Shown one piece after another: positions 1 through 40,707 of a stretch of DNA of 64,000 nt. A program made the translations under genes and the position numbers. The stretch is from an uncultured Thermoleophilia bacterium (GTDB lineage Bacteria > Actinomycetota > Thermoleophilia > UBA2241). The notes beneath the pieces were generated by a model. It saw nothing but the letters and a program-made list of their open reading frames with translations, did not search any database and was not told the DNA's origin. The stretch covers positions 640,001 through 704,000 of the forward strand of contig CAVPCT010000003.1 in the NCBI GenBank assembly GCA_963702475.1. Reading direction: 5' to 3'. The first letter of the stretch is position 1. The number at the start of each line of letters is the position of its first letter.

Positions 1-1
1 C

Positions 2-193
2 GTCGACGAGGCACTCACCGACTACGAGCCCGGCGCCCGTGAGTGGTGTGCTACGCTCATCGTCTCCGCGGCGAGCGCCGCCGAGGCGCGTGCAGCCGCC
101 GACACCGCGGCGCGCGAGCTCGCGCGTAGCCAGGGTCTCGAGCTCCTGCCCGAGAACGACCAGACCGTCCTTCCCCAGGAGGCGCGGACATGA
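2..193 (+). CDS. pylC: Pyrrolysine biosynthesis ligase PylC, 3' end (partial, runs off window)
   Basis: Frame 2 reads VDEALTDYEPGAREWCATLIV..., resembling the bacterial PylC C-terminus; its TGA overlaps the pylD ATG (ATGA 190-193). Confidence 0.75.
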   Translation, partial: VDEALTDYEPGAREWCATLIVSAASAAEARAAADTAARELARSQGLELLPENDQTVLPQEART

Positions 194-996
194 CCAGGCT
201 CACCGAGGACGACGTCCGCACCCTCACCGAAGACCTCACCGCGTTCGAGTCCGGTCTGCTCGAGGTCGCAGGCTTGGACCTGCGCACCCTCGCGCTGGCC
301 ACCGTGGCCGACCCCCCGGTCTGCGTACCGTTGCACGGCGCCCGCATCGCCGCGGTGCCAGTGACGTCGGGTGAGGGGGTCATCTCCGGCTTCACGGAGT
401 GCGTGGCGGTCATCCTGCGCCATCTCGGCTGCGAGGCGTGGGTGACCGGCCAGCCGGACGTGCGCGGCATCCAGCAGGCCGTTACCAGCCGCGCCGAGGT
501 CGTGTTCCTCGCCGACGACCACCGCTTCATCGCCCTCGACCTGCGCAACGGCCGCTGTGTCGACGACGACCCTGCCACGGCGGACGGCTACGTCACAGCC
601 CTCGAGGCCGCCGCCGGAGGGCTGTTCGGCAAACCCGTGCTCCTGCTCGGACTGGGCCCAGTGGGCCGCGCCGCCGCGCGTCGCCTCGTGCGCAGAGGGG
701 CGAAGGTCGAGGTCGTCGAGCCCAACAGCGAGCGCCTGCAGGCCGCCCTCGACATCGGCCTGCACGTCAGGCCCACCACCCTCGACGAGGGCCTGGCGCG
801 CTGTGACCTGGTCTTCGACGCCACACCGGCTCTCGACATCATCGACATCGCCGACGTGACCGAACGCACCATCGCCGCCGTGCCGGGTATCCCATCCGGG
901 TTCACGGCCGCAGCGCGCGCGGCCATGGGCCGTCGGCACATCCACGAGCCGCTGGCCGTAGGCGTCGCCGTCATGGCGGCTCGGGCGCTCGCCTAG
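190..996 (+). CDS. pylD: Pyrrolysine synthase PylD (3-methylornithyl-N6-lysine dehydrogenase)
   Basis: MTRLT start, VPVTSGEGVISGF, FLADDHRFIA, Rossmann GLGPVG, HEPLAVGVAVM; adjacent to tRNA-Pyl; ends in TAG. Confidence 0.93.
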   Translation: MTRLTEDDVRTLTEDLTAFESGLLEVAGLDLRTLALATVADPPVCVPLHGARIAAVPVTSGEGVISGFTECVAVILRHLGCEAWVTGQPDVRGIQQAVTSRAEVVFLADDHRFIALDLRNGRCVDDDPATADGYVTALEAAAGGLFGKPVLLLGLGPVGRAAARRLVRRGAKVEVVEPNSERLQAALDIGLHVRPTTLDEGLARCDLVFDATPALDIIDIADVTERTIAAVPGIPSGFTAAARAAMGRRHIHEPLAVGVAVMAARALA

Positions 997-1045: not shown

Positions 1046-1118
1046 GGGGGGTCGATCGCAAGGATCAGCGTGGACTCTAAATCCACGTAGGCGGGTGTGA
1101 CTCCCGCACTCCCCGCCA
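1046..1118 (+). tRNA. pylT: tRNA-Pyl, anticodon CUA
   Basis: Cloverleaf: acceptor GGGGGGT/ACTCCCC, G discriminator, CCA; 1-nt linker; D-stem GATC/GATC with 5-nt loop; 6-bp anticodon stem CGTGGA/TCCACG; loop CTCTAAA with CTA at 1077-1079; 3-nt variable loop; T-stem GCGGG/CCCGC lacking TTC. Confidence 0.97.
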
Positions 1119-2188: not shown

Positions 2189-2515
2189 ATGCCGACCGAT
2201 CCCAACAAAGCGCGCTACTACCGCAAGCAGATCCCGCTTTTCAGGCTGCTTGAGAAGATGAAGCTGTGGCCCTCGCGGCGCGGCATCCTGCACGGCATCC
2301 GCGAGATCACCCTGCGCGGCGAGTACGCCATCATCGTGACCCACTGCGGCAAACACATGGTGGTGCGCGATTCCAAGACGAGCCGCGCCGCGCGATGGCT
2401 GCGCAACAAGTGGTACGCCGAGGCGTGTCCCAAGTGCCGCATCCCGGAGTGGAAGCTCCAGAAGTACGCCTCCACGCACTTCAATCGGGGCTACGGCTCT
2501 CACCTGAGGGACTGA
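2189..2515 (+). CDS. pylSn: Pyrrolysyl-tRNA synthetase N-terminal subunit PylSn
   Basis: KLWPSRRGILHGI, THCG, SRAARWLRNKW, CPKCRIPEWKL motifs. Confidence 0.96.
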   Translation: MPTDPNKARYYRKQIPLFRLLEKMKLWPSRRGILHGIREITLRGEYAIIVTHCGKHMVVRDSKTSRAARWLRNKWYAEACPKCRIPEWKLQKYASTHFNRGYGSHLRD

Positions 2516-2573: not shown

Positions 2574-3453
2574 CTACAGCAGCCGCCAGCTCTCCGGCCG
2601 CAGCCGCATCGATTCCGGAGCAGTGAGCACCCTGTCCAGCGTGGCCAGCATGGCCGCCTTTTCCTGCGGCAGGCGCCCTCCCACGGGCAGATAGTTGGAC
2701 GCGTGGTTGCTTCGGAAGAGGCAGTCGGTGACCTCAGTGGCCGCGACGATCTCGCGCAGTTCGCGGAGCATGCCGAGCGAGTCCGGCAGCACCACCTCGC
2801 CGCGCGCCACCTTGCGCTCCATGGCGGTGCCCGGCGTGAGCATGAGCGTGAGGATGCCGATGTACCGCGGGTCGATGGCCGAGAGAGCCACGCCCGTGGC
2901 TCGCGCGTGCACGAGCGAGCGCTCTGCGCCGGCGAGGCCGAGGATGGCCGTGACGGACAGGGCGATGCCGGCCGTCGAGGCCCGCACGCAGCCCTCGATC
3001 TGTTCGCTCACCGTCATGCCCTTGTGGATGTGGGCCAGGGTCTGGTCGTCGCCCGACTCGAGGCCCAGGTAGATGAGCTCGAGGCCGTTCGCGCGGAGTG
3101 TCACCAGGTCCTCGGACGCTCTTCGCCAGCAGGTTGCGGGCGTTGGCGTAGGTGCTCACGCGCTCCAGGTTCGGCAGAGCCCGGTGCAGCAGATCCAGGA
3201 TGTCGTGCAGTTTGTGCGGGCTCAGTGCCATGGCGTCGCCGTCGGCCAGAAAGACCCGGTCCACACGGTTGCGCACCGTGGAGGGGAGACCCAGGACGTC
3301 GTCGACCACCTCGTCGAACGGTCGCACGGCGAACGGCTTCTCCAGATAGGTGCCGCAGAAGTCGCAGGTGTTGTTGGAGCAGCCGTACGTGACCTGCACG
3401 ATAAGACTGCTGGCCTCGCTGGGGGGGCGGATGACGGCGCCGTGGTACCTCAC
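2574..3453 (-). CDS. Radical SAM protein with a +1 frameshift near 3114 (probably a sequencing error)
   Basis: VIRPPSEA..GCSNNTCDFC (CxxxCxxC); joins the YLGLESG...FRSNHASNY frame if one C is removed from AGCGTCCGAG. Confidence 0.8.
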
Positions 3454-3651: not shown

Positions 3652-4284
3652 ATGGCCACCATCTACGAAGAAGCAGCCCAGACCATCGTCGACGCCGACC
3701 GCGCCGCCGCCGAGGAGGTCGCGAAGCGCGCCCTCGGGCAGGGCCTCGCGCCCGCCGACATCATGCAGAACGGCTTCGTCAAGGGTATCCAGGAGGTCGG
3801 CGAGCTCTTCGAGAGCGGCGAGGTCTTCCTCCCCGAGCTGATGATGAGCGCCGACGCCATGGCCGGGGCCACCGAGGTCACCAACGCCGCCCTGGAGGGC
3901 GAGGCCGCCGCGGCCAAGGGCGTGATCGTGATCGGCACCGTGCAGGGCGACGTGCACGACATCGGCAAGGCCATCGTCATCGCCTACCTGAAGGCCAACG
4001 GCTACGAGGTCCACGACCTCGGCCGCGACGTGCCCGCCGACGCCTTCCTCACCAAGGCCGCCGAGGTCGGCGCGAACGTGATCGGCATGAGCGCCCTGCT
4101 CACCACCACGATGGAGGAGCAGAAGAAGGTCATCAAGCGCGTGCGCGAGGAGGGCCTCGCCTACAAGTGCGTCGTCGGCGGCGCCCCCGCGACGCAGCGC
4201 TGGGCCGACCAGATCGGCGCCGACGCCTACGCCGAGGACGCCTCCGACGGCGTCAAGAAGATCGACGAGCTGCTCGGCGTCTGA
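3652..4284 (+). CDS. Methyltransferase cognate corrinoid protein (MtbC/MttC family)
   Basis: FLPEL helical cap, GDVHDIGK B12-binding motif, SALLTTT, GGAP; SD AAGGAG. Confidence 0.93.
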   Translation: MATIYEEAAQTIVDADRAAAEEVAKRALGQGLAPADIMQNGFVKGIQEVGELFESGEVFLPELMMSADAMAGATEVTNAALEGEAAAAKGVIVIGTVQGDVHDIGKAIVIAYLKANGYEVHDLGRDVPADAFLTKAAEVGANVIGMSALLTTTMEEQKKVIKRVREEGLAYKCVVGGAPATQRWADQIGADAYAEDASDGVKKIDELLGV

Positions 4285-4311
4285 GCGTCCCGGGAAGCCC
4301 CTGAGGGGCCG
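4256..4311 (+). repeat. Left copy of degenerate 56-bp direct repeat (corrinoid gene 3' end plus downstream DNA)
   Basis: Matches 17482-17537 at 50 of 56 positions by manual alignment. Confidence 0.85.
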
Positions 4312-4389: not shown

Positions 4390-4569
4390 GTGAACGAGTG
4401 GGACGACCGGTTCGACTACTACCGTGACAGCCCGACCCATGCGCTCGGCGCCGACCTCGACCAAGTCGTGGCCTGGTGCGAGTCGGGACCCGGTGTGGCA
4501 GCGCTGGACGTGGCCTGCGGCGGCGCCCTCCTTGGACATGCGGCCGATGCGCGCCGGCGTGCTCCCTGA
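4390..4569 (+). pseudogene. Truncated class I SAM-dependent methyltransferase
   Basis: SPTHALGADL...ALDVACGG motif I, then homology is lost next to the IS110 remnant. Confidence 0.6.
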
Positions 4570-4632
4570 CGGGCACTCCTGAGGATTGAGGCGAAAGTAG
4601 CCGACCGGCCGGCGCGCCGCGGCAAAGCGGCG

Positions 4633-5120
4633 CTAATCACGTTGACGCCGGAGACTGTCACCAGGCGGTGGGATCTCAGGTGAGTCCAGGGCTGCGCGGG
4701 CGCTGTCCCTCTCGAGAATACCGAGCTGGCCAGCGAGGAAGTCGAGCACGCGCAGACAGGCGTCTACCGTCTCGCGCTTGTCGCCGGGCAGCTCGAGGCC
4801 CGTGAGCCAGCAGCGCCCGTCCGCGCCGAACGGATCGCTCACTGGCGGGGCGCCCTTCAGGTTGTGGCAAAGGGTGGCGGAGATCTCGTTCTTGAGGCAC
4901 GTGCGCTGGCGGCGTAGGTTACGGGTCTTCTCGCCCGGCAGCAGGGCGCCTTGCAGCATGCCGGCCGCCAGCAGCTTCGCCAAGGCGCGCATCGAGGCGG
5001 TCGGTCTTCGCGTTGGCGACGGCGAAAGCGTGCGGCTCGCGCGCACCGGCCACTGCCACTCGTCTGACGTGAGGCGCGAGAATGCGCGCGATGGCGAGGG
5101 CGTTGCCGTTGGTCTCCTGG
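4633..5120 (-). mobile_element. IS110-family transposase remnant (frameshifted)
   Basis: ETNGNALAIARIL...AKTDRLDAR/ALAKLLAAG, RQRTCLKNEI, GRCWL..LELP. Confidence 0.75.
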
Positions 5121-5128
5121 AAATCGTT

Positions 5129-5445
5129 TCACAATGACGCTCGCAGTCGCCGGAAGCAGATCAGGCAGCAAGCCAGTTCGAGGAAGGCCTCGTGTACGTC
5201 GGCGCGCCGCTCCTAGCGCACGAGCAGGCGGCGGAAGCCGTGCAGCCAGGCGATGGTGCGCTCGACGACCCAGCGCTGGGCACCGAGACCGGAGCCGCGA
5301 GAGGTGCCGCGCCGCGCGATTTGCGGGGTGATGCCGCGCGCTCGCAGCCTGCGGCGGTAGGCTTCGTGGTCGTAGCCGCGGTCGGCGAGCAGACGCCGGG
5401 GGCGCAGCGCAGCCGGGGCCGCACCCCTACCGCCGCCGGTGATGG
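5129..5445 (-). mobile_element. IS5-family transposase 3' remnant
   Basis: LADRGYDHEAYRRRLRARGITPQIARRG..GSGLGAQRWVVERTIAWLHGFRRLLVR*ERRADVHEAFLELACCLIC; TAG at 5213-5215 where these transposases usually have an aromatic residue. Confidence 0.85.
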
Positions 5446-6026
5446 CGGGCCGGCCCAGACACTGAGTCGAGCCCGGTGCTTTCTCTTATGGGTGAGGTTG
5501 GGGGCGATGCGCTGGCAATCGGCCTTCAGAGGTCCGGGCATTGGCGGGCGCGACCCTGTACGCAGTGCGCGACGCGAGGGTAGCCCAGGTGAGAAGCTGT
5601 CGAGCTTGCAACTTGGTGCACGCGCTCTGTAAGCATCCTCGTCTCACCCTCGGCCAAGATCCCGATCTCCGCCTGCTCGGCCGCCTCGCGGCTCTTCGGG
5701 ATGTGGAGACTGCCTCCCGGGGTGAATGTCCATCTCTCGGCCACAGATCCCACGCCCTTGACGCTCACAACTCCATGCGATTGGTGCACAGCAGCCGTCA
5801 ACTCGTGGAAGCATCGGTAGTCTGGGGCCAAGGGCGCGCAGGCACCTGGTGAACGTGGCCAGGACGATGATGAGAGACGGGGCCGACAATGGCTGCGCCG
5901 GCAGCGGAGCGACCCCTTGCGTCTCGCCGAGAGCTCTGTATGATGCCGGCATAACCGAACGGTTGGTTACGCGCCGGCGTGGTCGGCAGGCCCCAGACCG
6001 CCCGCGCAGACAGCACAGGAGGATGT

Positions 6027-7253
6027 ATGCGAGTAGCTATTCTCGGAGCCGGCGCGCAGGGGTTCGTACTCACGTGGTACTTCGCTGCCTGCGCCGATGT
6101 GGACAGCATCGTCGTCGGCGACAACGAGCCGGAGCGGGCGCGGCAGGTCGTCGATCGCTGGGGTGCAGGCAAGTCAGAGGCCGTCATCGTCGACGCCACC
6201 GACATCGACGCCGTGGCACGCTTCGCTGCCGGCGCCGACATCCTTATCAACGCCGTGCTGCCGGAATGGGACGTTTCCTGCATGCAGGCGGCGCTGCAGG
6301 CCGGCGCACACTACATCGACATGGCCACGCGCAGGCCGGGCGGCACCGTCGACGACGGCTACATGGACCAGATGGACCTCGACGAGGCCTTCCGCTCGGC
6401 TGGTCTCACGGCTCTCATCACCACCGGCATGACACCCGGCGTCACCAACACTCTGGCGGCTATCGGCTACGAGGAAATGGACCGTTGCGAGGCTGTGCAC
6501 GTGCGCGCCACCTCCAACTTCCAGTCGGAGAAGCCCATACAGGTCTGGTCGCAGGAGACATGGTACATCGACTGCCAGACACCATGTCTCTACTTCTCAG
6601 AGGGCACCTTCCACCGCGCCGCGCCCTTCGGCGGACGCGAGTACTTCGACTTCCCGAGGCCGTACGGTCGCCGGCCCGTCACCTTCCACGAACACGAGGA
6701 AGCCACCACGCTGCCACGCTGGTTGCCCAGATTGGGCGAGAAGGGGCTGCAGTGCGTCGACTTCAAGATGGGTGCGAGCGACGCCGGCCTGGATGCGCTG
6801 AAGGCCGTCGTCGATAGCGGCATGGCCAGCCCGGAGCCGCGACAGGTGAAGGGTGTCACCGTGAGGCCCCTCGACGTGCTGGTCAGTAACCTGCCGCCCA
6901 GCCCGTCTCCCGACGAAGTGGCGGAGATGGCTCGGGCCGGCAAGATCGTGGACGAGGGTGTGTACGTCATCGACCTGCACGCAGAGCTCGACGACCCGCC
7001 CACCGAGTCGTTCTACGTCTACCCGCCGAGTATCCAGGAGCTCACCGAGATGTGCCCGGGCGCCAATCGCGTCAGCTATGGCACCTCGGTGCCCTGCGCC
7101 GCCTACGCCCGGTTCATCCTGGACGGCGTCATCGATACCCGTGGCGTCGTGCCGCCCGAAGGCCTGCCGCGCGAGGTGCGTCTGGCCTACGTGAAGGAGC
7201 TCGAGCACCGGGGTCTGCGCTTTGAGCGGCGCTCGCTCCGGTCGGTCTACTGA
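6027..7253 (+). CDS. Saccharopine dehydrogenase-like NAD(P)-dependent amine oxidoreductase
   Basis: GAGAQG Rossmann motif, HYIDMA, GMTPGVTN, HEE, GVVPPE; SD AGGAGG. Confidence 0.85.
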   Translation: MRVAILGAGAQGFVLTWYFAACADVDSIVVGDNEPERARQVVDRWGAGKSEAVIVDATDIDAVARFAAGADILINAVLPEWDVSCMQAALQAGAHYIDMATRRPGGTVDDGYMDQMDLDEAFRSAGLTALITTGMTPGVTNTLAAIGYEEMDRCEAVHVRATSNFQSEKPIQVWSQETWYIDCQTPCLYFSEGTFHRAAPFGGREYFDFPRPYGRRPVTFHEHEEATTLPRWLPRLGEKGLQCVDFKMGASDAGLDALKAVVDSGMASPEPRQVKGVTVRPLDVLVSNLPPSPSPDEVAEMARAGKIVDEGVYVIDLHAELDDPPTESFYVYPPSIQELTEMCPGANRVSYGTSVPCAAYARFILDGVIDTRGVVPPEGLPREVRLAYVKELEHRGLRFERRSLRSVY

Positions 7254-7327
7254 GACCGCTCCGAGGAGCGGTCGGCCCTCTGACCGACGCAACGATTCCG
7301 ACTGTGTAGCCGAAAGAAAGGAAGAAC

Positions 7328-8821
7328 ATGGCCGTTGATGCCAAAGCGCTTGCGAGCATCGGGGACAACGCCAATCTCATCGGCGGGAAGTGGGTGTCTG
7401 CCATCTCAGGCGAGACGTTCGATGTGCTCAGCCCGGCCACGGGCGAGGTGCTCGCTTCCGTTCCGAAGTGCGGCAAGGCCGATGTGGACGCTGCTGTCGA
7501 CGCTGCCGCCAAGGCGTGGACCGTCTTCAAGGACGTGCCTCTCTACGTGAGAGCAGACGCGCTGCGTCGGATGGCGGAGCTGATCCGCGAGCGGACAGAG
7601 GAGATCGCGCTCGTACTGAGCATGGAGCAGGGCAAGCCGTACGAGACCGAAGCCTTCCCTGAGGTCGAGGAGACGGCCTTCAACTTCCAGATCTTCGCCG
7701 AAGGGGCGGCCTCTTGGGAGGGACCGACCATCCCCTTCCGCGACCCGAACATCCGGGCTCACGCGATCTACTCACCCTACGGCGTCGTGGCGATCATCTC
7801 GCCATGGAACTTCCCGGTCATGATCCCTGCCGAGTACATCGCTCCGGCATTGCTGACCGGCAACACGGTCATCAGCAAGCCGGCATCCACAACGCCCCTG
7901 TCCATGATCCTCACGGCCCAGTGCATTCAGCAGGCGCTTGACGAGTTCGGGTTTCCGGGTGGGGTGTTCAGCCTGCTGACCGGTCCAGGCGGTGTTGTGG
8001 GCGAGCAGCTGGTGACCCATCCTCAGGTGGACCTCATCGGTCTCACCGGGGAGACCATCACCGGTGAAGAGATCTGCTCCAAGGCGGGGATCAAGAAGAC
8101 CTTGATGGAGCTTGGCGGCAACGGGCCCCAGATCGTCTGCGATGACGCCGACCTCAGGGAGGCGGCGAAGGCCGCTGCGCTCGGCTGCTTCTACAACGCC
8201 GGTCAGGTCTGCTGCGCAACGGAGCGGATCCTTGTGCAGGAGAGTGTCCATGACGAGTTCGTCAAGCTGATGCTTGAAGAATTGGCGAACTGGAAGCTCG
8301 GCGATCCTCTCGACGCGGCAACGACCGTGGGGCCGATGAACAACGCGGCGACGGTCGCGAAGGTCGAGGAGCACCTCGCGGATGCGGTGAGCAAGGGAGC
8401 GACCGTTCTGGCGGGCGGCGGACTGGAAGATGGCCGTCCGACCAGGCTGTATTTCCAGCCGACAGTCGTGGACGGCGTCGGCCGCAATACCCTGCTCAAC
8501 ATGGAGGAGACGTTCGGCCCGGTCGCACCCATCTTCACGTTCAAGACAGACGCTGAAGCAGTCGAGATCGCGCACGAGAGCGGCTACGGTCTGGTCATGG
8601 CCGTGTTCACCTCCTCGCTCAAGAGGTCCCATTACTACGTTGACCAGCTGCGCACGGGCAACATCGTCGTGAACCAATCGACCGACTATTGGGAAGCACA
8701 CCTGCCGTTCGGCGGCGGAGGCGGCACCAAGAGCGGGCACGGCCGGTTGGGTATGCGCTTCGCTCTGGAAGACCTGACGTATCTCAAGATGGTGACCGTC
8801 GACATCGCCAAGTGCCACTGA
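7328..8821 (+). CDS. NAD(P)-dependent aldehyde dehydrogenase
   Basis: ISPWNFP, MELGGN, NAGQVCCA, EETFGP, PFGG. Confidence 0.95.
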   Translation: MAVDAKALASIGDNANLIGGKWVSAISGETFDVLSPATGEVLASVPKCGKADVDAAVDAAAKAWTVFKDVPLYVRADALRRMAELIRERTEEIALVLSMEQGKPYETEAFPEVEETAFNFQIFAEGAASWEGPTIPFRDPNIRAHAIYSPYGVVAIISPWNFPVMIPAEYIAPALLTGNTVISKPASTTPLSMILTAQCIQQALDEFGFPGGVFSLLTGPGGVVGEQLVTHPQVDLIGLTGETITGEEICSKAGIKKTLMELGGNGPQIVCDDADLREAAKAAALGCFYNAGQVCCATERILVQESVHDEFVKLMLEELANWKLGDPLDAATTVGPMNNAATVAKVEEHLADAVSKGATVLAGGGLEDGRPTRLYFQPTVVDGVGRNTLLNMEETFGPVAPIFTFKTDAEAVEIAHESGYGLVMAVFTSSLKRSHYYVDQLRTGNIVVNQSTDYWEAHLPFGGGGGTKSGHGRLGMRFALEDLTYLKMVTVDIAKCH

Positions 8822-8861
8822 GGCCGGACCACCGAGTATGGAGCAAGGAGACGGGGGACTC

Positions 8862-10145
8862 ATGAAACGCATGAAGACGACTCGCCGGATGCTGCCGATA
8901 CTGGCCGTACTACTCCTGATAGCGGTTGGAGGTAGCGGCGCTGTACTTGCTGCATGCGGGGGGGACGAAACGACGAGCGACGACGCAACAGGCGGCGCTC
9001 CAATCAAGATCGGCGCACCCCTGCCGATCACGGGCTCGTACGCACTCGACGGCCAGCACATGCAGACCGGGATGCAGATGGCGATCGACGATCTCAATGC
9101 TCAGGGCGGTGTCCTGGGCCGCCAGCTCGAACTCGTCACGTTCGACATCGGGGAGTTGCTCGCCGAAGACATCAACGCCTCCGCGGAGTACCTTCTCGGG
9201 AAGGAGAAGGTCGACCTGGTCGTGGAGGGTTACGCGGACTACGGCACGGACTTCCTGGCCTACGGCGCCAGGAGCGACGTACCGTTCATCAACGGCACGG
9301 CCTCTTCCAAGGCGGCCGAGCTGGCTGCAGAGGATCCGGAGGCCTACTGGAACATGTTCGACGTGTTCCCGGTCGAGGCGGACTGGGGAAGACGAGCATG
9401 GGACGGCGTGGCCAAGTTCGAGAGTGACTACCAGATCCCGGCCAAGCGCATCGCGATCATCCATGGAGATCTCGAGTGGGATCTCAAGTACACCGCGTCG
9501 ATCGCCGAGGCGGCTGAGGCTGCAGGCTGGACCGTTGTCCTCAACGAGACCGTTCCCTATGGCACGACAGACTGGGGACCGGTCCTGACGAAGCTCCGGG
9601 CAGCCGAACCGACCGCGGTCTCGTGTTCGATCCTGTCGGTCAAGGACATCTCGGCCTTCGTCAACCAATTCATGGAGGATCCGCCCCCCGCGACGTTGGA
9701 CATCTCGTCGATGATTGTTCTGAAGGACGTACAGGACGCGTGCGGCGACAACCTCATTGGGGTCATGGGCTACGTGACCAGCTACTTGCCTCCGAGCGAA
9801 ACGAACGACGACTTCAAGACCAGGTACAAGGAGAAGTTCGGCTACGATCTGCCTCTCACCACTCCGCCGTCGACCTACGATTCGGTCATGATCTGGGCGC
9901 AGGCGGTTGAGGCGGTCGGTGACGTGAGCGACCACAAGGCGATTGCCGACAAGATCAGGGCCACTCCTTACCAGGGGCTCGGGGGTCTTTACGACTTCAA
10001 CAACCCCGGACAGACCGTGCTCTACGGTCCCGACTTCCCAATCGGGTACGCGCAATACGCTGGGAACAACGAACTGCTCTTCTTCGGCGTTGATGAGTTC
10101 TTCCTGCCGCCCTGGATCCAGCCTCCATGGCCCAAGGCCGAGTGA
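8862..10145 (+). CDS. Liv-type ABC transporter substrate-binding lipoprotein
   Basis: Lipobox LAAC; IKIGAPLPITG..GGVLGR. Confidence 0.88.
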   Translation: MKRMKTTRRMLPILAVLLLIAVGGSGAVLAACGGDETTSDDATGGAPIKIGAPLPITGSYALDGQHMQTGMQMAIDDLNAQGGVLGRQLELVTFDIGELLAEDINASAEYLLGKEKVDLVVEGYADYGTDFLAYGARSDVPFINGTASSKAAELAAEDPEAYWNMFDVFPVEADWGRRAWDGVAKFESDYQIPAKRIAIIHGDLEWDLKYTASIAEAAEAAGWTVVLNETVPYGTTDWGPVLTKLRAAEPTAVSCSILSVKDISAFVNQFMEDPPPATLDISSMIVLKDVQDACGDNLIGVMGYVTSYLPPSETNDDFKTRYKEKFGYDLPLTTPPSTYDSVMIWAQAVEAVGDVSDHKAIADKIRATPYQGLGGLYDFNNPGQTVLYGPDFPIGYAQYAGNNELLFFGVDEFFLPPWIQPPWPKAE

Positions 10146-10230
10146 TCGCCAGGTTCTCGAGGCCACGGTCGAGCGGGTCCGATCCCCGCTCGACCAGCCC
10201 ATCGAAAGGGCCCATGGGGGCGGTGACGCT

Positions 10231-10941
10231 GTGTCCCTGAGTCTGCAGAACGTCACTCAGCGGTTCGGCGCACTGGCCGCGGTGGACGACGTCAGCTTCG
10301 ACGTGGAGAAGGGTGAAGCGCTGGGCATCGCCGGCCCCAACGGGGCCGGCAAGACGACGCTCTTCAACACGATCTGCGGCTTTCATCGCCCCGAGGGCAA
10401 GATACTTCTGGACGGGATCCGACTCGACAGTCTCCAACCGCACCGCGTCTGCCGGCTGGGCGTGGCCAGGACGTTCCAGATCCCTGCACCGTTCGATTCG
10501 ATGACTGTGCGGCAGAACGTTGAGGTCGGCGCCGTCTTCGGTGGTGGCAGCCATCGGAGAGAGGCCATGCACGCGCGAGTCGACGAGGCGCTGGACCGAG
10601 TGCACATGCTGGAGAAGGCTGAGTCGCCTGTCCGCACGCTCAAGCTCTACGACAAGAAGCTGGCGTTGCTGGCGGCAGCTCTCGCTACGGGTCCCAGCGT
10701 CCTTCTGCTTGACGAAGTGGCTGCTGGATTGAGCGCTGTGGAAATGAAGGAGTTGTTCGAGCTCATACAGCATCTCAACCGCGAGGCTGGCCTGACCCTG
10801 CTGGTCATCGAGCACATCATGAGCATCCTTACCGGGCTGTGCGATCGGATCCTCGTGATGAACGATGGAAAGGTGCTCGCCATCGGTGAGGCGGACGCGG
10901 TCATGGCCGATCCGGACGTGAAGGAGGCTCTGCTGGGATGA
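10231..10941 (+). CDS. Liv-type ABC transporter ATPase (LivG-like)
   Basis: GPNGAGKTT, ARTFQ, LLLDE, IEH. Confidence 0.92.
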   Translation: MSLSLQNVTQRFGALAAVDDVSFDVEKGEALGIAGPNGAGKTTLFNTICGFHRPEGKILLDGIRLDSLQPHRVCRLGVARTFQIPAPFDSMTVRQNVEVGAVFGGGSHRREAMHARVDEALDRVHMLEKAESPVRTLKLYDKKLALLAAALATGPSVLLLDEVAAGLSAVEMKELFELIQHLNREAGLTLLVIEHIMSILTGLCDRILVMNDGKVLAIGEADAVMADPDVKEALLG

Positions 10942-11666
10942 GCATGCTCGAAGTCGAGAGCCTCAACGTCAGCTACGGTGATATCCAGGTCATTCGCGAC
11001 ATCAACCTCACGGCAGAAGAGGGCCAACTGACGGCCATCTTCGGACCGAACGGGCACGGCAAGACCACGCTGCTGAAGACCATCTGCGGTCTGGTGACCC
11101 CGACGTCAGGCACCGTGCGCGTCGACGGCGAGGAGTTCCAGGGTCGCCCGTCGGACCAGCATGTTGATCGAGGCATTGTCCTTGTTGCCGAGGAACGCCA
11201 CCTCTTTTCGGAGATGACCGTGATGGAGAATCTCCAGCTTGGTGCGTTCTCGCGTGCCGCTCGCGCCGCCGAGGATGCCAATCTCACCCGCGTGTTCGAC
11301 ATGTTCCCAAAACTGGCCGATCTGCGTCGGCGGGAGGCCGCGACACTCAGCGGCGGAGAAGCGCGGATGCTCGCCATCGGAAGAGGGCTCATGTCGTGCC
11401 CGCGACTGTTCGCGGTCGACGAGCCGTCATTCGGGCTCGTTCCGAAGTTGCGCCACGTGGTCTTCGACTCCCTGCGCCAGTTGGCAGATGGCGGCTTGAC
11501 CGTGCTCGTCGTCGAGCAGTCGACGGCGCGGATCTCGGAACTCGCGGACCAGGTGTATCTGATCGAAGACGGGGCAGTCGTGTTTGGTGGCGATACAGCA
11601 GCGGCGCTGCAGAACGAAGAATTCAAGCGCGTCTACCTCGGCCAGGGGCCGGGAGGTGAGGAGTGA
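10938..11666 (+). CDS. Liv-type ABC transporter ATPase (LivF-like)
   Basis: GPNGHGKTT, LSGGE, VDEPSFGL, VEQ. Confidence 0.92.
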   Translation: MSMLEVESLNVSYGDIQVIRDINLTAEEGQLTAIFGPNGHGKTTLLKTICGLVTPTSGTVRVDGEEFQGRPSDQHVDRGIVLVAEERHLFSEMTVMENLQLGAFSRAARAAEDANLTRVFDMFPKLADLRRREAATLSGGEARMLAIGRGLMSCPRLFAVDEPSFGLVPKLRHVVFDSLRQLADGGLTVLVVEQSTARISELADQVYLIEDGAVVFGGDTAAALQNEEFKRVYLGQGPGGEE

Positions 11667-12547
11667 GCTGGCGATCCCTTGGTGACGTGTTGATCAGCGG
11701 TCTGACCATCGGCAGCGTGTACTACCTGATGGCTCTCGGATTCACGCTCGTATACGGCGTTGGCCGCGTGCTCAATCTGGCCTACGGGTCCTTCTTCGTG
11801 TGGGGAGCCTACGTGTGCTGGGTGTTCACGGTCGGCGTCGCCACCTTGCCCATAGTCGTGGGCGGCCTTATTGCAGTCCCCCTGCTCTTCTTGCTTGGCG
11901 TGGCCGTTGACCGGGGTGTGGTGAATCCGCTGCGGAAACGGCCGGAGTTCGACTTCAGCGTCCTCCTGGCGACCCTGGGCCTTGCCATGGTTCTGGACAA
12001 TCTGGCGCTCGTCATCTTCGGACCGCGGCCAAAGGCGCTGCCTGATTTCGGCAGCTGGAGCCTGGAGGTCGGAGGCTTCGTGCTCAGCGCGCAAGCACTC
12101 ATCATCATTGCGTTCGCCGGCGCCTTTGCCTTCGCACTGACGCTGTTTCTGCAGCGCACCAAGACGGGCATGAGCATCCGCGCGGTCGCCCAGGATCCGA
12201 CAGGGGCGCGCATGGTCGGCATTCGGCTCAACCACGTGTACGCCCTGACGTTCGGTCTGTCGGTCGCCTTGGCCGCTGCCGGAGGGATTCTCCTGGCGCA
12301 GCGGTTCTTCATCACGCCACTGGGCGGCTGGACCATTCTCATCAAGGCTCTCATCATTGCTGTAGCTGGAGGCATGGGGAGCCTGAAGGGGACCCTGGTG
12401 GCCGCCTTCGCTCTGGGCATGCTCGAAGCGTTCGTGGGCTGGCAGGCGGGGCTTCTGTGGGTGATGCCCTTCTGGTTCGGAGTCCTTCTCGCGATCCTGC
12501 TCACAAGGCCTCACGGACTGTTCGGGGCAGCGGGGAGGCGGGTGTGA
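11663..12547 (+). CDS. Liv-type ABC permease (LivH-like)
   Basis: ALGFTLVYGV..LNLAYG, IRAVAQD, GGMGS, RPHGLFG. Confidence 0.92.
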   Translation: MSWRSLGDVLISGLTIGSVYYLMALGFTLVYGVGRVLNLAYGSFFVWGAYVCWVFTVGVATLPIVVGGLIAVPLLFLLGVAVDRGVVNPLRKRPEFDFSVLLATLGLAMVLDNLALVIFGPRPKALPDFGSWSLEVGGFVLSAQALIIIAFAGAFAFALTLFLQRTKTGMSIRAVAQDPTGARMVGIRLNHVYALTFGLSVALAAAGGILLAQRFFITPLGGWTILIKALIIAVAGGMGSLKGTLVAAFALGMLEAFVGWQAGLLWVMPFWFGVLLAILLTRPHGLFGAAGRRV

Positions 12548-13551
12548 TACGCAGGCGCGCATACGTGCTCGCTGGTTGCATCGTTGCCATTCTGGCCGTG
12601 CTGCCGCTGATAGTGGGCAACGACTCGTACATGATGAGACTCCTTCTGATCAGCATGTTGTGGGGCGGACTGGCCCTGTCGTGGGATCTGCAGCTCGGGT
12701 ATGCAGGGATCTTCAACTTGGGCCAGATCGGCTTCTTCGTGTGTGGTGCGTACGCGTCTGCGATGCTGACCATGTACGTCGATATCTCCCCGTGGCTCGG
12801 CTTGGTTGTAGGGGCGGCGGTCGGCGGTCTCATCGCAGCTGCCATCGGCGTGGCGTGCCTTCGCCTGACGGGTATCTACATCGCTCTGCTCACGCTGGCT
12901 TTCTTTGAGGTGCTTGGCCCCCTGCTCACCCTGGGGAAGCCGTGGGGGACCGGGGGGAAGGCTGGGCTCCTGCCCATACCGCCTTTGAGTTGGGGCGGTC
13001 AGCCATTCTCGGTCTATGACCCGCTGCCGTGGTACTACTGTGCCCTTGGACTCCTCGTGGTCTGCATGGTCGTGGTGGTATGGGTCGTCAGGTCGCGACT
13101 GGGCCGTGGATTCATCGCCCTGCGCGACTCCGAGTCGCTGGCACAAGCCCTGGGAGTCGACCGCTTTCGCTCCTCGCTGGCGGTAGTAGGCATATCCGGC
13201 GCGCTGGCGGGGATGATGGGAGCTTTCTACGCCAGCTACCAGGGAGTCCTCTCGCCACGCCTGCTCGGACTCGACCTGTTCCTCTTCCTGATCATTGCGA
13301 TCCTCGCAGGCGGCGTGGGCAAGTTCCCAGGGGCAGTTCTGGGAGCGATAGCGGTGACGTTCGTCACGGACAGTCTGCGCCCCACCGGGACCTACCGTCT
13401 CTTGATCCTCGGGGGGCTCGTCGTCGTTCTGGTGCTGTTCCTTCCTGCCGGTGCGATGGGCGGTCTGGATTCGGTGATCCTGCGCATCAAGCGCTGGCGA
13501 AGAGGAGGCGTACAACCCCCGGTCGTGGATGTCGATCCGAAGGAGCCATGA
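12544..13551 (+). CDS. Liv-type ABC permease (LivM-like)
   Basis: LGYAGIFNLGQ, LRLTGIYIALLTL, ALRDSE..AQALG. Confidence 0.92.
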   Translation: MIRRRAYVLAGCIVAILAVLPLIVGNDSYMMRLLLISMLWGGLALSWDLQLGYAGIFNLGQIGFFVCGAYASAMLTMYVDISPWLGLVVGAAVGGLIAAAIGVACLRLTGIYIALLTLAFFEVLGPLLTLGKPWGTGGKAGLLPIPPLSWGGQPFSVYDPLPWYYCALGLLVVCMVVVVWVVRSRLGRGFIALRDSESLAQALGVDRFRSSLAVVGISGALAGMMGAFYASYQGVLSPRLLGLDLFLFLIIAILAGGVGKFPGAVLGAIAVTFVTDSLRPTGTYRLLILGGLVVVLVLFLPAGAMGGLDSVILRIKRWRRGGVQPPVVDVDPKEP

Positions 13552-13734
13552 TGGCGCGGAGCGTACTGAGGCACGTGCGGCCCGCGCATCTGGGTGTCAT
13601 CTCATCCGCTCACGGCGACCGGTCGATACCGCGATGAGTCCGGAGCGTTTCACTCCCCGGCGTGAGCCTTGAACTGCCAGGGTCGGCGGGGAGTCTCGCC
13701 ATGGAGCAAATGTAGCCTTGGGGTGTGACGAGCG

Positions 13735-14688
13735 ATGCTCACCGTCACCCTTGGTCTGACGGCGGCGTTCTGCTACGCCCTCGTCGACCTTCTGATGGTG
13801 CGAGTCGTGCGCACGGTGCCCGTGGCATTGGCGTTGGTGTGGCTGGTCGGTGTCGGCGCGCTCATCAGTGTGCCGCTGGCGCTCTTCGTGGACGGGGTCC
13901 CGAGTGGCAGCGCGGAGTGGCGCGGGGTCGGCATCGCGGCCATCGGCGGAGTCACGTACATGGCCGCGTTGGGGGCGATGTTCCGCGGGCTGGCGGTAGG
14001 CCAGCTGTCCATCATGTCGCCGATCACCGCGCTTGAAGGCGCGTTCGCGGCGCTGGTGGCCATCGTGCTCGGCGAGCAGCTCGGCGGCCTGGCGGCCGTG
14101 GGTCTGCCGCTCGCCGTGATCGGCGCCGTTCTGGCGTCGATTGTGCGAGTGTCGGCCGAGCCGGCCGTCGCGATGACGTCTGCGGTCGAGGTCGCCCAAG
14201 CCGAAGGCGGCTCCTGCGGCGCGAACGCCGGCACCCGGGACGAGAAGGGCGGCCGTGCACCCGGTGCCTGGGAGGCCGCCCGCGGCGCCGGCTGGGCGTT
14301 ACTGGCGGCCACGGCGGGCGGAACCACCATTCTCATCTACGGGTGGGCCGCCGACCTGCCGCCGTTCTCGGCTGTGGCCATGTCCCGCCTGGTGAGCTTC
14401 CTCATTGTGCTTGCCTACGCGGCCACGCATCAGGGCCTGGCTCTGCCGCGGGTGTGGCGCCCGCGGGTCGTTTTCGCAGGCTGTGTCGAACTGGCAGCGT
14501 TCGTGGCGCTGGCGGCCTCCACCGCACGTGGCCCCGTGTCGGTGGCCGCGGTGACGACCGCTCAGTTCGCCACGTTTGGCGTCATTCTGGGAGTTCTGAT
14601 ACTGCACGAACGCCCGCTCCTACAGCAGCGTGTGGGCATCCTCGCCACCCTGGTGGCCGTGACGCTGCTCGCCCTCTCGGAGGTATAG
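13735..14688 (+). CDS. EamA/DMT family transporter
   Basis: Two hydrophobic repeats with LGEQL and LHERP signatures; ends in TAG. Confidence 0.8.
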   Translation: MLTVTLGLTAAFCYALVDLLMVRVVRTVPVALALVWLVGVGALISVPLALFVDGVPSGSAEWRGVGIAAIGGVTYMAALGAMFRGLAVGQLSIMSPITALEGAFAALVAIVLGEQLGGLAAVGLPLAVIGAVLASIVRVSAEPAVAMTSAVEVAQAEGGSCGANAGTRDEKGGRAPGAWEAARGAGWALLAATAGGTTILIYGWAADLPPFSAVAMSRLVSFLIVLAYAATHQGLALPRVWRPRVVFAGCVELAAFVALAASTARGPVSVAAVTTAQFATFGVILGVLILHERPLLQQRVGILATLVAVTLLALSEV

Positions 14689-14743
14689 GCCGCCCGGGAG
14701 AGGCCCCGGGGCGGCAGACAAGTCAACCACTGGAGAACTCTCT

Positions 14744-15439
14744 ATGTGCGCCGCAATCGACAAGAACCGGACAGCAGTGCTGGATTCCGAAGCGGGAGCG
14801 GTCCGGCACGCGCCGTTCGAGGATCCATCCCTCACCCTGCCTGAGCCTGCCAACGAGATCGTGCAGGCGGCGCGCCGCCTGCTGCTGCTCGGCGGTTGGG
14901 AGGCCCTGCGCGTCGACGCCATCGTTCGCGAGGCTGGCAGGAACAAGGCCTCGGTGAAGTACTACTTTGGCAATAAGCAGGGCCTCATCACCGCCCTCAT
15001 CGACTCGCTTGACCACGAGCAGTGCCTCGCCTTGGCCGAGCGCACCGCCGCAGCCGACGGGGAAGAGCGCCTCAGCCGCTACATCATCGGACAGACCGAG
15101 CTTGCCAGCGACGCCGAAGCGTTTCTCCTGTTCTTCGATGTCCTGCCGCACGTGATTCGCGACGAAGAGCTGCGCAGGCGAGTAGCGCCACTCTATGAGT
15201 GGTACCGGCATATGAACATGGTGTGGCTGGGCCTCACCGACAGGGTCACCGACGAGAACCGGGACCGCCTCAGGGCGTTCGTCGCACTGATGGTCGCGGT
15301 GGTGGACGGGCTGGCCATCCAGGCGTCGCTGCAGCCGGAGGATTTCGACGTGGCCGCCTCTTTTGACATCCTTGAGATCTTCCTCAAACGCTGCCTTGAC
15401 GAGGTGGTCACGGGAACTGCTGATGGCGCCGCAAGTTGA
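14744..15439 (+). CDS. TetR family transcriptional regulator
   Basis: IVQAARRLL..GWEALRVDAIVREAG..KASVKYYFGNKQGL helix-turn-helix. Confidence 0.9.
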   Translation: MCAAIDKNRTAVLDSEAGAVRHAPFEDPSLTLPEPANEIVQAARRLLLLGGWEALRVDAIVREAGRNKASVKYYFGNKQGLITALIDSLDHEQCLALAERTAAADGEERLSRYIIGQTELASDAEAFLLFFDVLPHVIRDEELRRRVAPLYEWYRHMNMVWLGLTDRVTDENRDRLRAFVALMVAVVDGLAIQASLQPEDFDVAASFDILEIFLKRCLDEVVTGTADGAAS

Positions 15440-15686: not shown

Positions 15687-15941
15687 CAGTCCCAGCCCAA
15701 GCTGATCGACCGCCGCGTGCTGGAGGAGTGGGCTGCCGCCGGCAGCACGGACCTCCACCAGCGCGCGCAGGAGGAGGCGCGTCGCATCCTCGCGACGCAC
15801 GCCCCGGAACCGCTGCCGGACGCCGTGGCGCGCGAGATTCGCGGCATCGTCGACGCGGCCGACCACGAGGCGGCGTCGACGATGAACAGGCGGCGCCAGA
15901 GGGCACCGAGGAGCCTCGCCACGCCCTGCCGTGCGCGCTGA
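15687..15941 (+). pseudogene. mttB: 3' remnant of a trimethylamine methyltransferase MttB-family gene
   Basis: QSQPKLIDRR..EEWAAAGSTDL..RAQEEARRILATHAPEPLP resembles the MttB C-terminus; the 5' part is missing. Confidence 0.75.
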
Positions 15942-15976
15942 CCCAGCAAGGTAAGCCACCCAGGGAGAATCCGAAG

Positions 15977-17365
15977 ATGGAGAACAGCTACCCGACGCGT
16001 GACGGCGACGGATCGCTCGTGCGCATGACTCGCGGCCAGCTTCACTCAGAGCTGGAGGAGGGGACGCAGGCGGCGGCAGCGCGCGCCAAGGTCCCGCCCC
16101 TGACGACGGACGAGCTGGACCACCTGCTCGACATCTGGGCGTCTCCGGCTCGCTTCTCGTCCGTCGACATCGGTGACGAGGTCGTGCTCACGTACGACGG
16201 GTCGGGCTCGAAGACGGTCGGCACGCGCACGCAGGACCTGCTCATCTACGAGCAGATGATGGGCGCCGACTCCGTGGAGCTCGCGCACGTCGACTACTCG
16301 TTCAAGGCCGTCAAGACCATCCTTCCGCACGAAGCGCAGAACATGAAGGACGCCCAGCTCGTCCTGACGGCGCCGATGATGTACGGGGCGATGCCCAACC
16401 TGGGGCTGTACTCCCAGCCGGATGGGCCCGTGCCCAACTGGTCGGAGCTCCTGCCGATGACGAAGATCGCCGAGGCGCGTGCCGCCCAGGAAGAGGCGAT
16501 CGAGCACGCCGTCAAAGACATGGTCGCGGTCGCCGACGCTATGTGGGAGGCGGGCGCCGACGGGATCGACTTCGACACCGCCGGCGCCGCCGGCGACGGC
16601 GACCTCCTGGCGACGCTTCGCGCGGTCGAGAAGATTCGCGCAAAGCATCCCGACATGGGCATCGAGGTCGGCATGGCCGGCGAGTTCGTCCTCGGCGTGC
16701 ACGGTCAGCTCGAGTACGACGGCGTGCGCCTGGCCGGGCTCTGGCCTCGCGCCCAGATGGAGCTCGTGCGCCGGGCGGGCGCGACGATCTTCGGCCCCGC
16801 GGTCAACGTGAACACGCGCAAGTCGGGCGCCTGGAACATCGCCCGGGCGCTCACCCTGGTCAAGCCGTGCATGGATGTCGCCGAGATCCCCGTGCACATG
16901 AACGTCGGCATGGGCGTCGGCGGCGTCCCGATGAGTAGCTACCTGCCGCTGGACGCCGTGTCCCGAGCATCCCGTGCCTGCGTCGACATCCTGCGGCTGG
17001 ACGGTCTGTAGGTCGGCACGGGTGATCCTCTGGGCATGCCTTGTGCCCACGCGATCGCCTCGGGGATGTGCGGCATGCGCGCTGCTGGAGATCTGGTGGC
17101 GCGCATGCAGATCACTCGGGGGATGCGGATACATGAGGCCAAGGCCTACGTGGCCGAGCGGCTGGGGGTCGGTCCGTCCGACCTCTCCGACCCGCTCGCG
17201 ATGGCGGACGTGCGTAGGCACCATCAGCTGGGACGCATCACGACGTTCGAGATGAGCTACGCGAGCGAAAGTAGCGCGATGGAGTCGAAGTTCCGGATTG
17301 CCGAGCTGCTCGACCTCCCGATCAACTGCGTGCAGCGCTTCAGGCGGCACGCCGGGCTCGCGTGA
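15977..17365 (+). CDS. mtbB: Pyrrolysine-containing dimethylamine:corrinoid methyltransferase MtbB-like (462 aa, Pyl345 from TAG 17009-17011)
   Basis: RDGDG, HVDYSFK, YGAMPNLGLYSQPDGP, FDTAGAAGDGD, GMGVGG, then DGL-TAG-VGTGDPLGM..RAAGDLVARMQ, colinear with methanogen MtbB across the stop. Confidence 0.95.
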
Positions 17366-17481
17366 GCCCGGACGACCGGGGACCGGGAACGATCTGCTGA
17401 AAGGGATCGGCGTGCATACAGGCGCCGCGCGACCGCGGCTACTGAGAGCGGGATGTGGTATAGGCAGGAGGTGGAGACTCG

Positions 17482-17537
17482 AGAAGATCAACGAGCTGCT
17501 CGGCGTCTGAGCGGCCCGGCAGGCCCGTAAGGGGCCG
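17482..17537 (+). repeat. Right copy of the 56-bp direct repeat; orphan corrinoid gene tail (KINELLGV*)
   Basis: 50 of 56 identical to 4256-4311. Confidence 0.85.
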
Positions 17538-17643: not shown

Positions 17644-18501
17644 TCAGATATTGAGGCGGACGCCGTCGAAGTACGACAGGCTACGGCCGGCGCGCTCGAT
17701 GTTGGGAAAGCCCTCGCGGACCATGATGAGCCTCTCCAGGCCGAAGCCCAGGCCCACCCACGGGTCCATGACGCCCCAGTTGCCGTCCAGTGGGTGCGGG
17801 CCCATGCCGGCCGAGCACACCTCGATGCCGCCGACCTCGACGTCGATCATCTGGCCGTACACCTCGGACTCGGTCCTGACCAGGTCGTACGTCTTCACGC
17901 CGGCGGCGTCCATGACCACGGCCGCGAGCTCCGTCATCCGCTCGCGGCATCTCTCCTCCGGCGTGCCGAGTTCGACCAGGTTCAGCATGGTGAACTCGTT
18001 GAGGTGGCTGGACCCCTTGCTGTCACGGCGAAAGCACGGCCCGATCTCGTAGATGCCGAACGGACGGCCCCACATACGACCCAGGCGCCTCAGCATGGTG
18101 TACAGGTTGGGCGCCAGCATGGGTCGCAGGCAGCGGCCGTCCTCGAGCCAGAAGACCTGCTCGCGCAGGGGGTGACCGTGCTCGATGCCCATTCTCGTCA
18201 GCGATTCGGCGGCGATGATGAGCGGCGTGACCATGGGCACGAACCCGGCGGCGCCGAGTGCTTCGCGCAGCGCCGCCTCCAGCTCGAGCAAGCGAGGCGC
18301 CACTGCGCCCCCCTTCAGGTCTTTCAGGTGGCGCCGCCCGGCGCGCACGAGCTTGTCCTCGGCGGCGCGGAACGCGGTGTCGCGCTCCCCGGCGTCCGCG
18401 AAGGTGGCGTCGGCCAGCTGACTTGCACCGCCGAGCTCGCGCAGGCGCTGCACCTGGGTCGCCGAGAGGCGCACGCCTCCCGAGTCTGTCTGTTCACTCA
18501 C
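17644..18501 (-). CDS. pylSc: Pyrrolysyl-tRNA synthetase catalytic subunit PylSc
   Basis: QRLRELG, CLRPMLAPNLY, HLNEFTMLNLVE, VYG, PWVGLGFGLERL, RSLSYFDGVRLNI. Confidence 0.97.
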   Translation of the reverse strand: MSEQTDSGGVRLSATQVQRLRELGGASQLADATFADAGERDTAFRAAEDKLVRAGRRHLKDLKGGAVAPRLLELEAALREALGAAGFVPMVTPLIIAAESLTRMGIEHGHPLREQVFWLEDGRCLRPMLAPNLYTMLRRLGRMWGRPFGIYEIGPCFRRDSKGSSHLNEFTMLNLVELGTPEERCRERMTELAAVVMDAAGVKTYDLVRTESEVYGQMIDVEVGGIEVCSAGMGPHPLDGNWGVMDPWVGLGFGLERLIMVREGFPNIERAGRSLSYFDGVRLNI

Positions 18502-40058: not shown

Positions 40059-40707
40059 GTGTCTGACCTGTACGACCAGATGAAGCAGTCCGTCATCGAC
40101 GGCGAGGTGGAGGACGCCGAGCGCCTCGCCCAGGAGGGCCTCGACGCCGGCCTCGCCCCCGGCGACATCCTCGACCTCGGGCTTCGTGAAGGGCATCGAG
40201 GAGGTCGGCGAGCTCTTCGGGCGCGGCGAGTTCTTCCTCCCCGAGCTCGTCCAGGGGGCCGAGGCCATGAAGGCCGCCGTGGCCGTCCTGCAGCCGGCCC
40301 TGGACGCCGCCGGCGGCGAGCGCAAGAGCCTCGGCGTGGCCGTGGCCGGGACCGTGGCCGGCGACATCCACGAGATCGGCAAGACGATCGTCTGCTCGAT
40401 GCTCAGCGCCGCCGGCTTCAGCGTCACCGACGTGGGCTGCGACGTGCCGGTCGAGACCTTCATCGCCAAGTGCCGCGAGGTCGACGCCGACCTGCTCCTG
40501 CTCTCCGCCCTCCTCACCACGACCATGCCCAACCAGCAGAAGACCATCGAGGCGCTCAAGGAGGCCGGCCTGCGTGACCGCGTCAAGGTCATGATCGGCG
40601 GCGCCCCCACGACCCGCGCCTGGGCCGACGAGATCGGCGCCGACGGCTACGCCGAGGACGCCATCGAGGCGGTCAGCGCGGCCAAGGCGCTGCTCGGGGC
40701 GGAGTAA
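40059..40707 (+). CDS. Second methyltransferase corrinoid protein, +1 frameshift near 40180 (probably an error)
   Basis: The N-terminal frame joins VKGIEEVG..FFLPEL..GDIHEIGK..SALLTTT if one G is removed from CTCGGGCTTC. Confidence 0.88.

Follow-up and report, generated by a model that had tools for sequence, protein, structure and literature searches.

In the 64 000-nucleotide stretch of DNA from an uncultured Thermoleophilia bacterium analysed here (the window), one gene of the MtbB methyltransferase family carries a TAG codon within its reading frame. The locus raises two questions: whether this codon is read through, as pyrrolysine (Pyl), and, if so, which amine the product demethylates. 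Table 1 lists the relevant features.

Table 1. Features of the window, in window coordinates
Feature	Position	Strand	Remarks
End of pylC	1..193	+	pylB and pylC lie just upstream, G000:C3:637870-640193
pylD	190..996	+	Own terminator TAG; TIGR03911 210 bits, cut-off 150
tRNA-Pyl	1046..1118	+	CUA anticodon
pylSn	2189..2515	+	TIGR03912 127 bits, cut-off 51
Corrinoid protein (MtxC type), candidate methyl acceptor	3652..4284	+	TIGR02370 220 bits, cut-off 215
Left copy of 59-bp direct repeat	4253..4311	+	Corrinoid gene 3' end and hairpin; bounds 13.2-kb insertion
Other cargo of insertion	5979..15439	+	Saccharopine-dehydrogenase-like protein, aldehyde dehydrogenase, LivK-type binding protein, EamA, TetR
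3' remnant of Pyl-mttB, about 65 codons	15681..15874	+	In relatives this gene precedes the orthologue
MtbB-family (short-loop clade) amine:corrinoid methyltransferase gene	15977..17365	+	462 codons with read-through
Loop after barrel strand 1, residues 75-83	16199..16225	+	Lacks 11 residues relative to long-loop MtbB
In-frame TAG, codon 345, predicted pyrrolysine	17009..17011	+	Strand 343-347 of predicted barrel
Four-residue insertion, about residues 423-426	17243..17254	+	Typical of short-loop clade
Right copy of direct repeat	17479..17537	+	88% identical; just past methyltransferase gene
pylSc	17644..18501	-	TIGR02367 314 bits, cut-off 178

The gene and its in-frame TAG

The methyltransferase gene starts at ATG 15977 and terminates with a TGA whose last base is 17365. 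Its translation contains a single internal stop, the TAG at codon 345, in the context DGL-O-VGTGDPLGM. The open reading frames listed under genetic code 11 divide it into two (15728-17011 and 17036-17365), but both lie in one frame with only the TAG region between them, and the original prediction that they form one gene is borne out, as is its recognition of a Pyl context common to methanogen MtbB. The read-through protein matches profile PF09505 over residues 4-457 with 585 bits (cut-off 25) and TIGR02368, the dimethylamine (DMA) equivalog, with 470 bits (cut-off 369), in agreement with the MtbB-family assignment first proposed.

An open frame behind the TAG was considered as evidence for read-through and rejected, since in this 70% GC genome 181 of the 549 called genes that end in TAG have an open frame of at least 117 codons past the stop. 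We therefore used homology, column and selection tests instead. In a 140-row alignment, all of the rows derived from DNA (129/129, some genes possibly being counted twice owing to overlapping fetch routes) have their TAG in a single shared column. The annotated products of two named methanogen MtbBs stop one column before the TAG of the window; the methanogen Pyl column is taken from where these products end, as expected for amber-cut products. The codon thus aligns with the MtbB Pyl column, as had been supposed. One TAG and no further stop is found in 85 of 86 near-full-length matches at named loci, a set which excludes partial matches and in which some genes may be present twice. Codon 345 is TAG in all six orthologues, and dN/dS against these is 0.12-0.15 downstream of the TAG and 0.19-0.24 upstream; these values are pairwise and do not isolate the branch of the 15977-17365 copy. 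Judged from these ratios, the segment past the TAG is under purifying selection. Gene callers truncate nearly all such genes at the TAG, and there are no full-length entries among the 120 nearest proteins.

In our view, read-through is almost certainly the functional reading of 15977-17365, and we infer that UAG is decoded as pyrrolysine in its product. Pyl-mtbB has already been published for the same phylum, so recoding at this locus is ordinary: amber-containing mtbB and Pyl-mttB are reported as expressed in Actinobacteriota metagenome-assembled genomes from a permafrost peatland (PMC10805028). In the accessible part of that report DMA is assigned as substrate by homology, and subfamilies, indels and paralogue counts are not described.

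A short-loop clade of MtbB

The window protein shares 45% identity with methanogen MtbB (PF09505, TIGR02368) from Ca. Methanohalarchaeum thermophilum (OKY77547.1) and 44% with that from a member of the Methanomethylophilaceae (MBR6203772.1). It resembles these proteins in its full-length family match and shared barrel motifs but is shorter after strand 1, and compared with full-length long-loop rows it is four residues longer near the C-terminus. The shortening, put at about ten residues in the original prediction, is exactly 11: the spacing from V63 to D98 is 36 residues in the window protein and 47 in long-loop MtbB, represented here by the long copies of this genome and the two named methanogen proteins, none of which is from Methanosarcina. 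Adding 11 to 345 gives 356, which fits the Pyl position of M. barkeri MtbB1. The spacing is 36 in all 120 of the proteins nearest the window protein; among the 120 nearest a long copy it is 47 in 118 and 42 in two. Trp155 is invariant in short-loop copies, with proline in long copies, and most short copies have the four additional residues near 423-426 in the alignment.

With the loop columns removed, an IQ-TREE analysis of 45 chosen rows placed the short rows (19/19) in one clade with support of 100/100, which confirms the divergent clade that the original prediction had suspected; FastTree with all 140 rows grouped 126 short rows with support of 0.80. In the IQ-TREE analysis five rows whose loops are of intermediate length (41-42) nest with the short clade at 99.9/100; they comprise Dehalococcoidales, a deltaproteobacterium, a cluster with gut clostridia and one further row. 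Because these rows nest with the short clade, the loop appears to have been shortened stepwise from a methanogen-type state, in a tree whose root depends on one divergent row. By its spacing of 36 residues and its separate clade (100/100), the window protein falls outside the long-loop methanogen-type branch; it probably works like MtbB and is a member of the family without being a member of that branch. No description of a short-loop MtbB subfamily was found in the literature searched, in which subscription journals are thinly covered. This subfamily is the apparently undescribed part of the present observations, the recoding itself being already known.

Several individual rows deserve mention. 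L097, L113, L116, P0421 and P0433 are the rows with loops of 41-42, from Dehalococcoidales, a deltaproteobacterium and the cluster that includes Emergencia and Anaerotruncus, and are sister to the short clade. The short-loop copies L093 and L129 come from records with the titles Alphaproteobacteria and Deltaproteobacteria but fall within the Thermoleophilia rows, which may reflect transfer or mis-binning. P0128, P0421, P0387 and P0433 are full-length MtbB-family proteins with Trp, Leu or Gln at the Pyl column. Of these, P0128, which has Trp, divergent motifs and an identity of 36-37%, could be a genuine MtbB without Pyl; Gln and Leu may reflect gene callers using another code.

Predicted structure

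The AlphaFold model of the window protein is a confident TIM barrel (pLDDT 93.8), in which residue 345 lies within strand 343-347, the eighth strand of the predicted barrel. The model superposes on the homocysteine-binding domain of MetH (PDB entry 1q7m) with Z 17.4 and an r.m.s. difference of 3.3 for 246 aligned residues, and on PDB entry 4ay7 with Z 17.0. Foldseek returned generic TIM barrels only, with MtmB and MttB absent among the matches listed. The model of a long copy has a helix (76-80) after the first strand, the counterpart of which is missing from the short model. A search for a solved MtbB structure gave no matches at E <= 1, so that the catalytic role given to the Pyl site in the original prediction is drawn by likeness to MtmB and MttB (PMC9842639). 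The structures of M. barkeri MttB-MttC and MtmB (PDB entries 7xcl, 7xcm and 7xcn) provide the model for the chemistry and the TIM barrel, with no sequence homology to the window protein. The placement of Pyl on a barrel strand in our model is as in MtmB, whereas in MttB Pyl lies above the barrel.

Paralogues in the genome

There are seven intact MtbB copies in the genome, five short and two long, together with three frameshifted copies and two fragments. The short paralogues are 54-62% identical to one another, and short copies in general form about seven sub-lines, each of which recurs across genomes. At 23 positions, including 78-80, 103-105, 322 and 348, residues are constant within sub-lines but differ between them. 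The loops following the barrel strands form the catalytic face of TIM barrels and line their active sites. Sub-line-specific positions make up 9 of 103 in the catalytic-face loops, 0 of 27 in the opposite loops and 7 of 122 in helices, a distribution which is mildly biased to the catalytic face.

The long copy on contig C9, at G000:C9:308731-310131, shares an island with Pyl-MtmB and Pyl-MttB and is the natural DMA enzyme of the genome; with long copies retained, DMA is already covered. The MttB family has 75 matches (pieces counted), 13 of them near-full-length with one TAG, and there are five MtmB-family genes, one with a TAG and four non-Pyl. In addition, 43 B12-binding matches were noted in the 4.3-Mb genome, and MttB genes are dense on contig C4. 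At G000:C2:39977-46109 a long-loop Pyl-MtbB gene faces a choline/ethanolamine kinase-like gene (named by eye), with a non-Pyl MtmB, a corrinoid protein and a non-Pyl MttB at the same locus, which is a candidate choline-type demethylation module.

Gene company of the orthologues

In five genomes of the same genus the orthologue is the last gene of an operon that also contains Pyl-mttB and non-Pyl mttB and faces a TetR gene; Pyl-mttB is apparently frameshifted in one of the five. In two more genomes the contig starts inside the non-Pyl mttB of this locus. Near these operons are deiminase-, carbamoyltransferase-, class III aminotransferase- and amine-oxidase-like genes, most of which score below their equivalog cut-offs, and a lysine 2,3-aminomutase gene. 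The operon and its neighbours suggest stepwise demethylation, in which a quaternary amine is converted to a tertiary and then to a secondary one. Non-Pyl MttB enzymes acting on quaternary amines (MtgB; PDB entries 2qne and 9yce) offer a precedent for a family radiating onto larger amines; that radiation lost Pyl, whereas the short-loop MtbB clade, whose orthologues are flanked by non-Pyl MttB genes, retains it.

In counts limited to loci with at least 3.5 kb of flank, in which kin are not independent, 17/39 short and 5/18 long copies have MttB genes of both types at a distance of 3.5 kb or less, Pyl-MttB lies near 22/39 short copies and no MttB lies near 11/39. The company of non-Pyl MttB was rejected as a mark of the short clade, its excess being modest (22/39 versus 5/18). 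Each short sub-line has its own clusters of non-Pyl MttB partners, which partly overlap, and one has a Pyl-MttB cluster in common with long copies. Neighbour families were also discarded as a guide to substrate, as the clusters mostly mirrored fixed genome position.

Substrate and proposed mechanism

To our knowledge, all characterized Pyl methyltransferases act on mono-, di- or trimethylamine, and these are the three classes named in one structural study (PMC9842639). An altered substrate for the short-loop enzyme, which the original prediction had raised, is plausible. We consider the chances evenly balanced that its main substrate is a secondary N-methylamine bulkier than DMA (R-NH-CH3), which might be derived from a diamine or an amino acid by methylation. 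Counted in favour of this reading were the distinct clade, the site of the deletion in a loop of the catalytic face, the long copies that cover DMA, the divergent sub-lines with their own non-Pyl MttB clusters and the genes near the orthologue operons. Against it, the protein passes the DMA equivalog cut-off (TIGR02368), the MttB trio is not specific to short copies, the bias of sub-line-specific positions to the catalytic face is mild and the partner Pyl-mttB is only a remnant here. The broader proposal, that the short-loop clade is a radiation demethylating secondary amines larger than DMA with each sub-line tuned to its own R-NH-CH3, is put forward tentatively, at somewhat less than even chances.

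A serious competitor, which we hold to be possible at somewhat less than even chances, is that the protein is simply one more isozyme of dimethylamine:corrinoid methyltransferase. In that case the indels would alter the choice of corrinoid partner, oligomer contacts or nothing, and the copies would serve dosage or regulation. The equivalog score, the barrel core and the Pyl context conserved with methanogen MtbB are all consistent with this, and Pyl-MttB, which yields DMA in methanogens, is the neighbour of many short copies. M. barkeri has three DMA isozymes (PMC2933860), and actinobacterial Pyl-mtbB is treated as DMA-specific in PMC10805028. The long-loop copies that the genome already has argue the other way, as does the divergence of the short paralogues into separate lines with fixed loop differences.

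In the mechanism that we propose for the bulkier-amine enzyme, UAG would be read as pyrrolysine by the host tRNA-Pyl and PylSn + PylSc in competition with termination, and the resulting methyltransferase would be a TIM barrel whose eighth strand bears Pyl. By analogy with the proposals for MtmB and MttB (PMC9842639), the substrate nitrogen would add to the imine carbon of Pyl and the N-methyl group would pass to the Co(I) of a corrinoid protein. Genome content suggests that RACo proteins would reactivate the corrinoid and that a second methyltransferase, a pterin-binding protein, would transfer the methyl group to tetrahydrofolate (THF), from which it would enter the Wood-Ljungdahl pathway. 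Besides AcsB (above cut-off; the genes around it were identified by eye), the genome encodes RACo activators and pterin-binding proteins. MtrH was not found in this 94% complete genome. CoM or THF is given as the likely methyl acceptor in bacteria (PMC5424206). In contrast to methanogen MtbB, the window protein belongs to a bacterium which has acetyl-CoA synthase and in which MtrH was not found, and it has many divergent paralogues. A distance of 11.7 kb separates the methyltransferase gene from the nearest corrinoid gene, whose score of 220 is below the 350 set as cut-off for MtbC, and many corrinoid proteins are encoded in the genome. In a three-step chain, non-Pyl MttB would act on the quaternary amine, Pyl-MttB on the tertiary amine and short-loop MtbB last, on the secondary amine.

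If this is correct, abundant anaerobic Thermoleophilia could, with the MttB partners, strip three methyl groups from quaternary amines, pyrrolysine catalysis would reach past mono-, di- and trimethylamine, and thousands of proteins labelled as DMA methyltransferases would be misassigned. The subfamily also has a bearing on the contest between bacterial methylotrophs and methanogens over the methylated nitrogen of wet soils and sediments. The roughly seven divergent Pyl-MtbB lines and the MttB matches of the genome offer a direct test ground for Pyl chemistry on larger amines.

The insertion that carries the window copy

The methyltransferase gene is the last gene of the 13.2-kb insertion, and its place among the pyl genes is therefore secondary. 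Only 110-1058 bp separate the corrinoid gene from pylSc in relatives (both anchors present in 6/11 loci), compared with 13.2 kb here, and the orthologue is located elsewhere than at this locus; adjacency to the pyl genes was accordingly rejected as a functional link. The GC content of the insertion is lower, at 62-66% across 6-14 kb, and ABC-transporter-like ATPase and permease genes (named by eye) lie beside the LivK-type binding protein. The stretch 17479-17537 was considered as the trace of a corrinoid gene lost by deletion, but is better read as an insertion boundary. The Pyl-mttB remnant has 82-88% nucleotide identity to the partner gene of relatives. A deletion of non-Pyl mttB between this remnant and the methyltransferase gene need not be invoked, as Pyl-mttB likewise lies directly upstream of the orthologue in loci L025 and L063.

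These features bear on the possibility that the clade is functional but that the window copy, orphaned on an insertion in decay, has little or no expression, which we judge improbable. It would fit the reduction of the upstream Pyl-mttB, the loss of the 5' regulatory region and the presence in the insertion of a truncated SAM-methyltransferase-like gene and IS-like debris (by eye). No close intact copy of the Pyl-mttB partner was found in this genome, and a promoter scan of the window copy, a weak test, revealed no sigma-70 consensus promoter. Set against this are the intact frame and pairwise dN/dS values against six orthologues that are well below 1. One study provides two RNA libraries in which contigs of close relatives, 93-97% identical, extend across the TAG, although such contigs cannot prove transcription (shares in the RNA runs are <= 0.15, from contigs only); among the 40 RNA-library matches listed, none has a change at the TAG codon.

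Some further observations concern this region and its counterparts. Within 4390-5430 of the window lies the truncated small gene, which is intact and SAM-methyltransferase-like in three relatives, and past it are two stretches resembling debris of IS110 and IS5 transposases by eye; a search of 4636-5426 with family profiles gave no matches. The saccharopine-dehydrogenase-like protein of the lower-GC operon at 5979-13551 is a weak match to carboxynorspermidine synthase; the operon, which also includes the aldehyde dehydrogenase and LivK-type transporter genes, possibly serves to break down polyamines or diamines. Another dehydrogenase-like gene of this kind is found at G000:C4:181433-182662, ahead of mttB genes and a fragment of mtbB. 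At G000:C4:174166-176447 there are a non-Pyl mttB and a TetR gene that match those missing here; they are 94% identical to their counterparts in the operons of two relatives, but both flanking Pyl-dependent genes are absent.

Pyrrolysine machinery and host

The host encodes pylT, PylRS, PylB, PylC and PylD, a complete set; the pylB/pylC region matches TIGR03910 with 438 bits and TIGR03909 with 324 bits, both above cut-off. TAG also ends 549 of the 3863 genes called with a crude in-house caller and is thus an ordinary stop in this host, so that decoding must be ambiguous. That the TAG of the methyltransferase gene is a true stop, leaving a truncated 344-residue protein, a pseudogene or a sequencing error, would suit this ordinary use and the presence of frameshifted paralogues in the assembly, but it is very hard to reconcile with the complete Pyl system, the shared TAG column, the stronger conservation downstream than upstream and the loss of the predicted eighth strand on truncation, and we regard it as extremely unlikely. 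A hairpin 3' of the UAG in the window copy has a z score of -2.9 against dinucleotide shuffles. A conserved PYLIS-like stem-loop was rejected, the mean z for 23 genes being 0.08 with synonymous shuffles; this agrees with an earlier account, in which no hairpin was seen in mtbB (PMC2933860).

Records of the nearest named loci (83-84%) bear the title Thermoleophilia. Relatives of MtbB occur in 24/24 same-genus genomes and in 1/16 other genomes of the class, and PylSc scores above cut-off in 23/24 of the former and in the sole other-family genome with MtbB. When 400 genomes were drawn from the phylum, the MtbB family was present in one, and the lone same-genus genome drawn had none. G381, of the same genus (1.8 Mb, 98% complete), has no MtbB-family matches.

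Other features were noted in passing. Between pylSn and the corrinoid gene there is a split radical-SAM-like gene (2574 to about 3460, minus strand) with an apparent frameshift near 3110 which may be an assembly error. The corrinoid gene itself has a 99.85% identical second copy at G000:C2:35966-36645, either a recent duplication or an assembly artefact. An additional B12-binding corrinoid protein is encoded at about 40093-40707 of the window, with no methyltransferase gene seen adjoining it. A tRNA-Sec gene is present at G000:C3:167171-167268, and the host therefore probably uses both rare amino acids.
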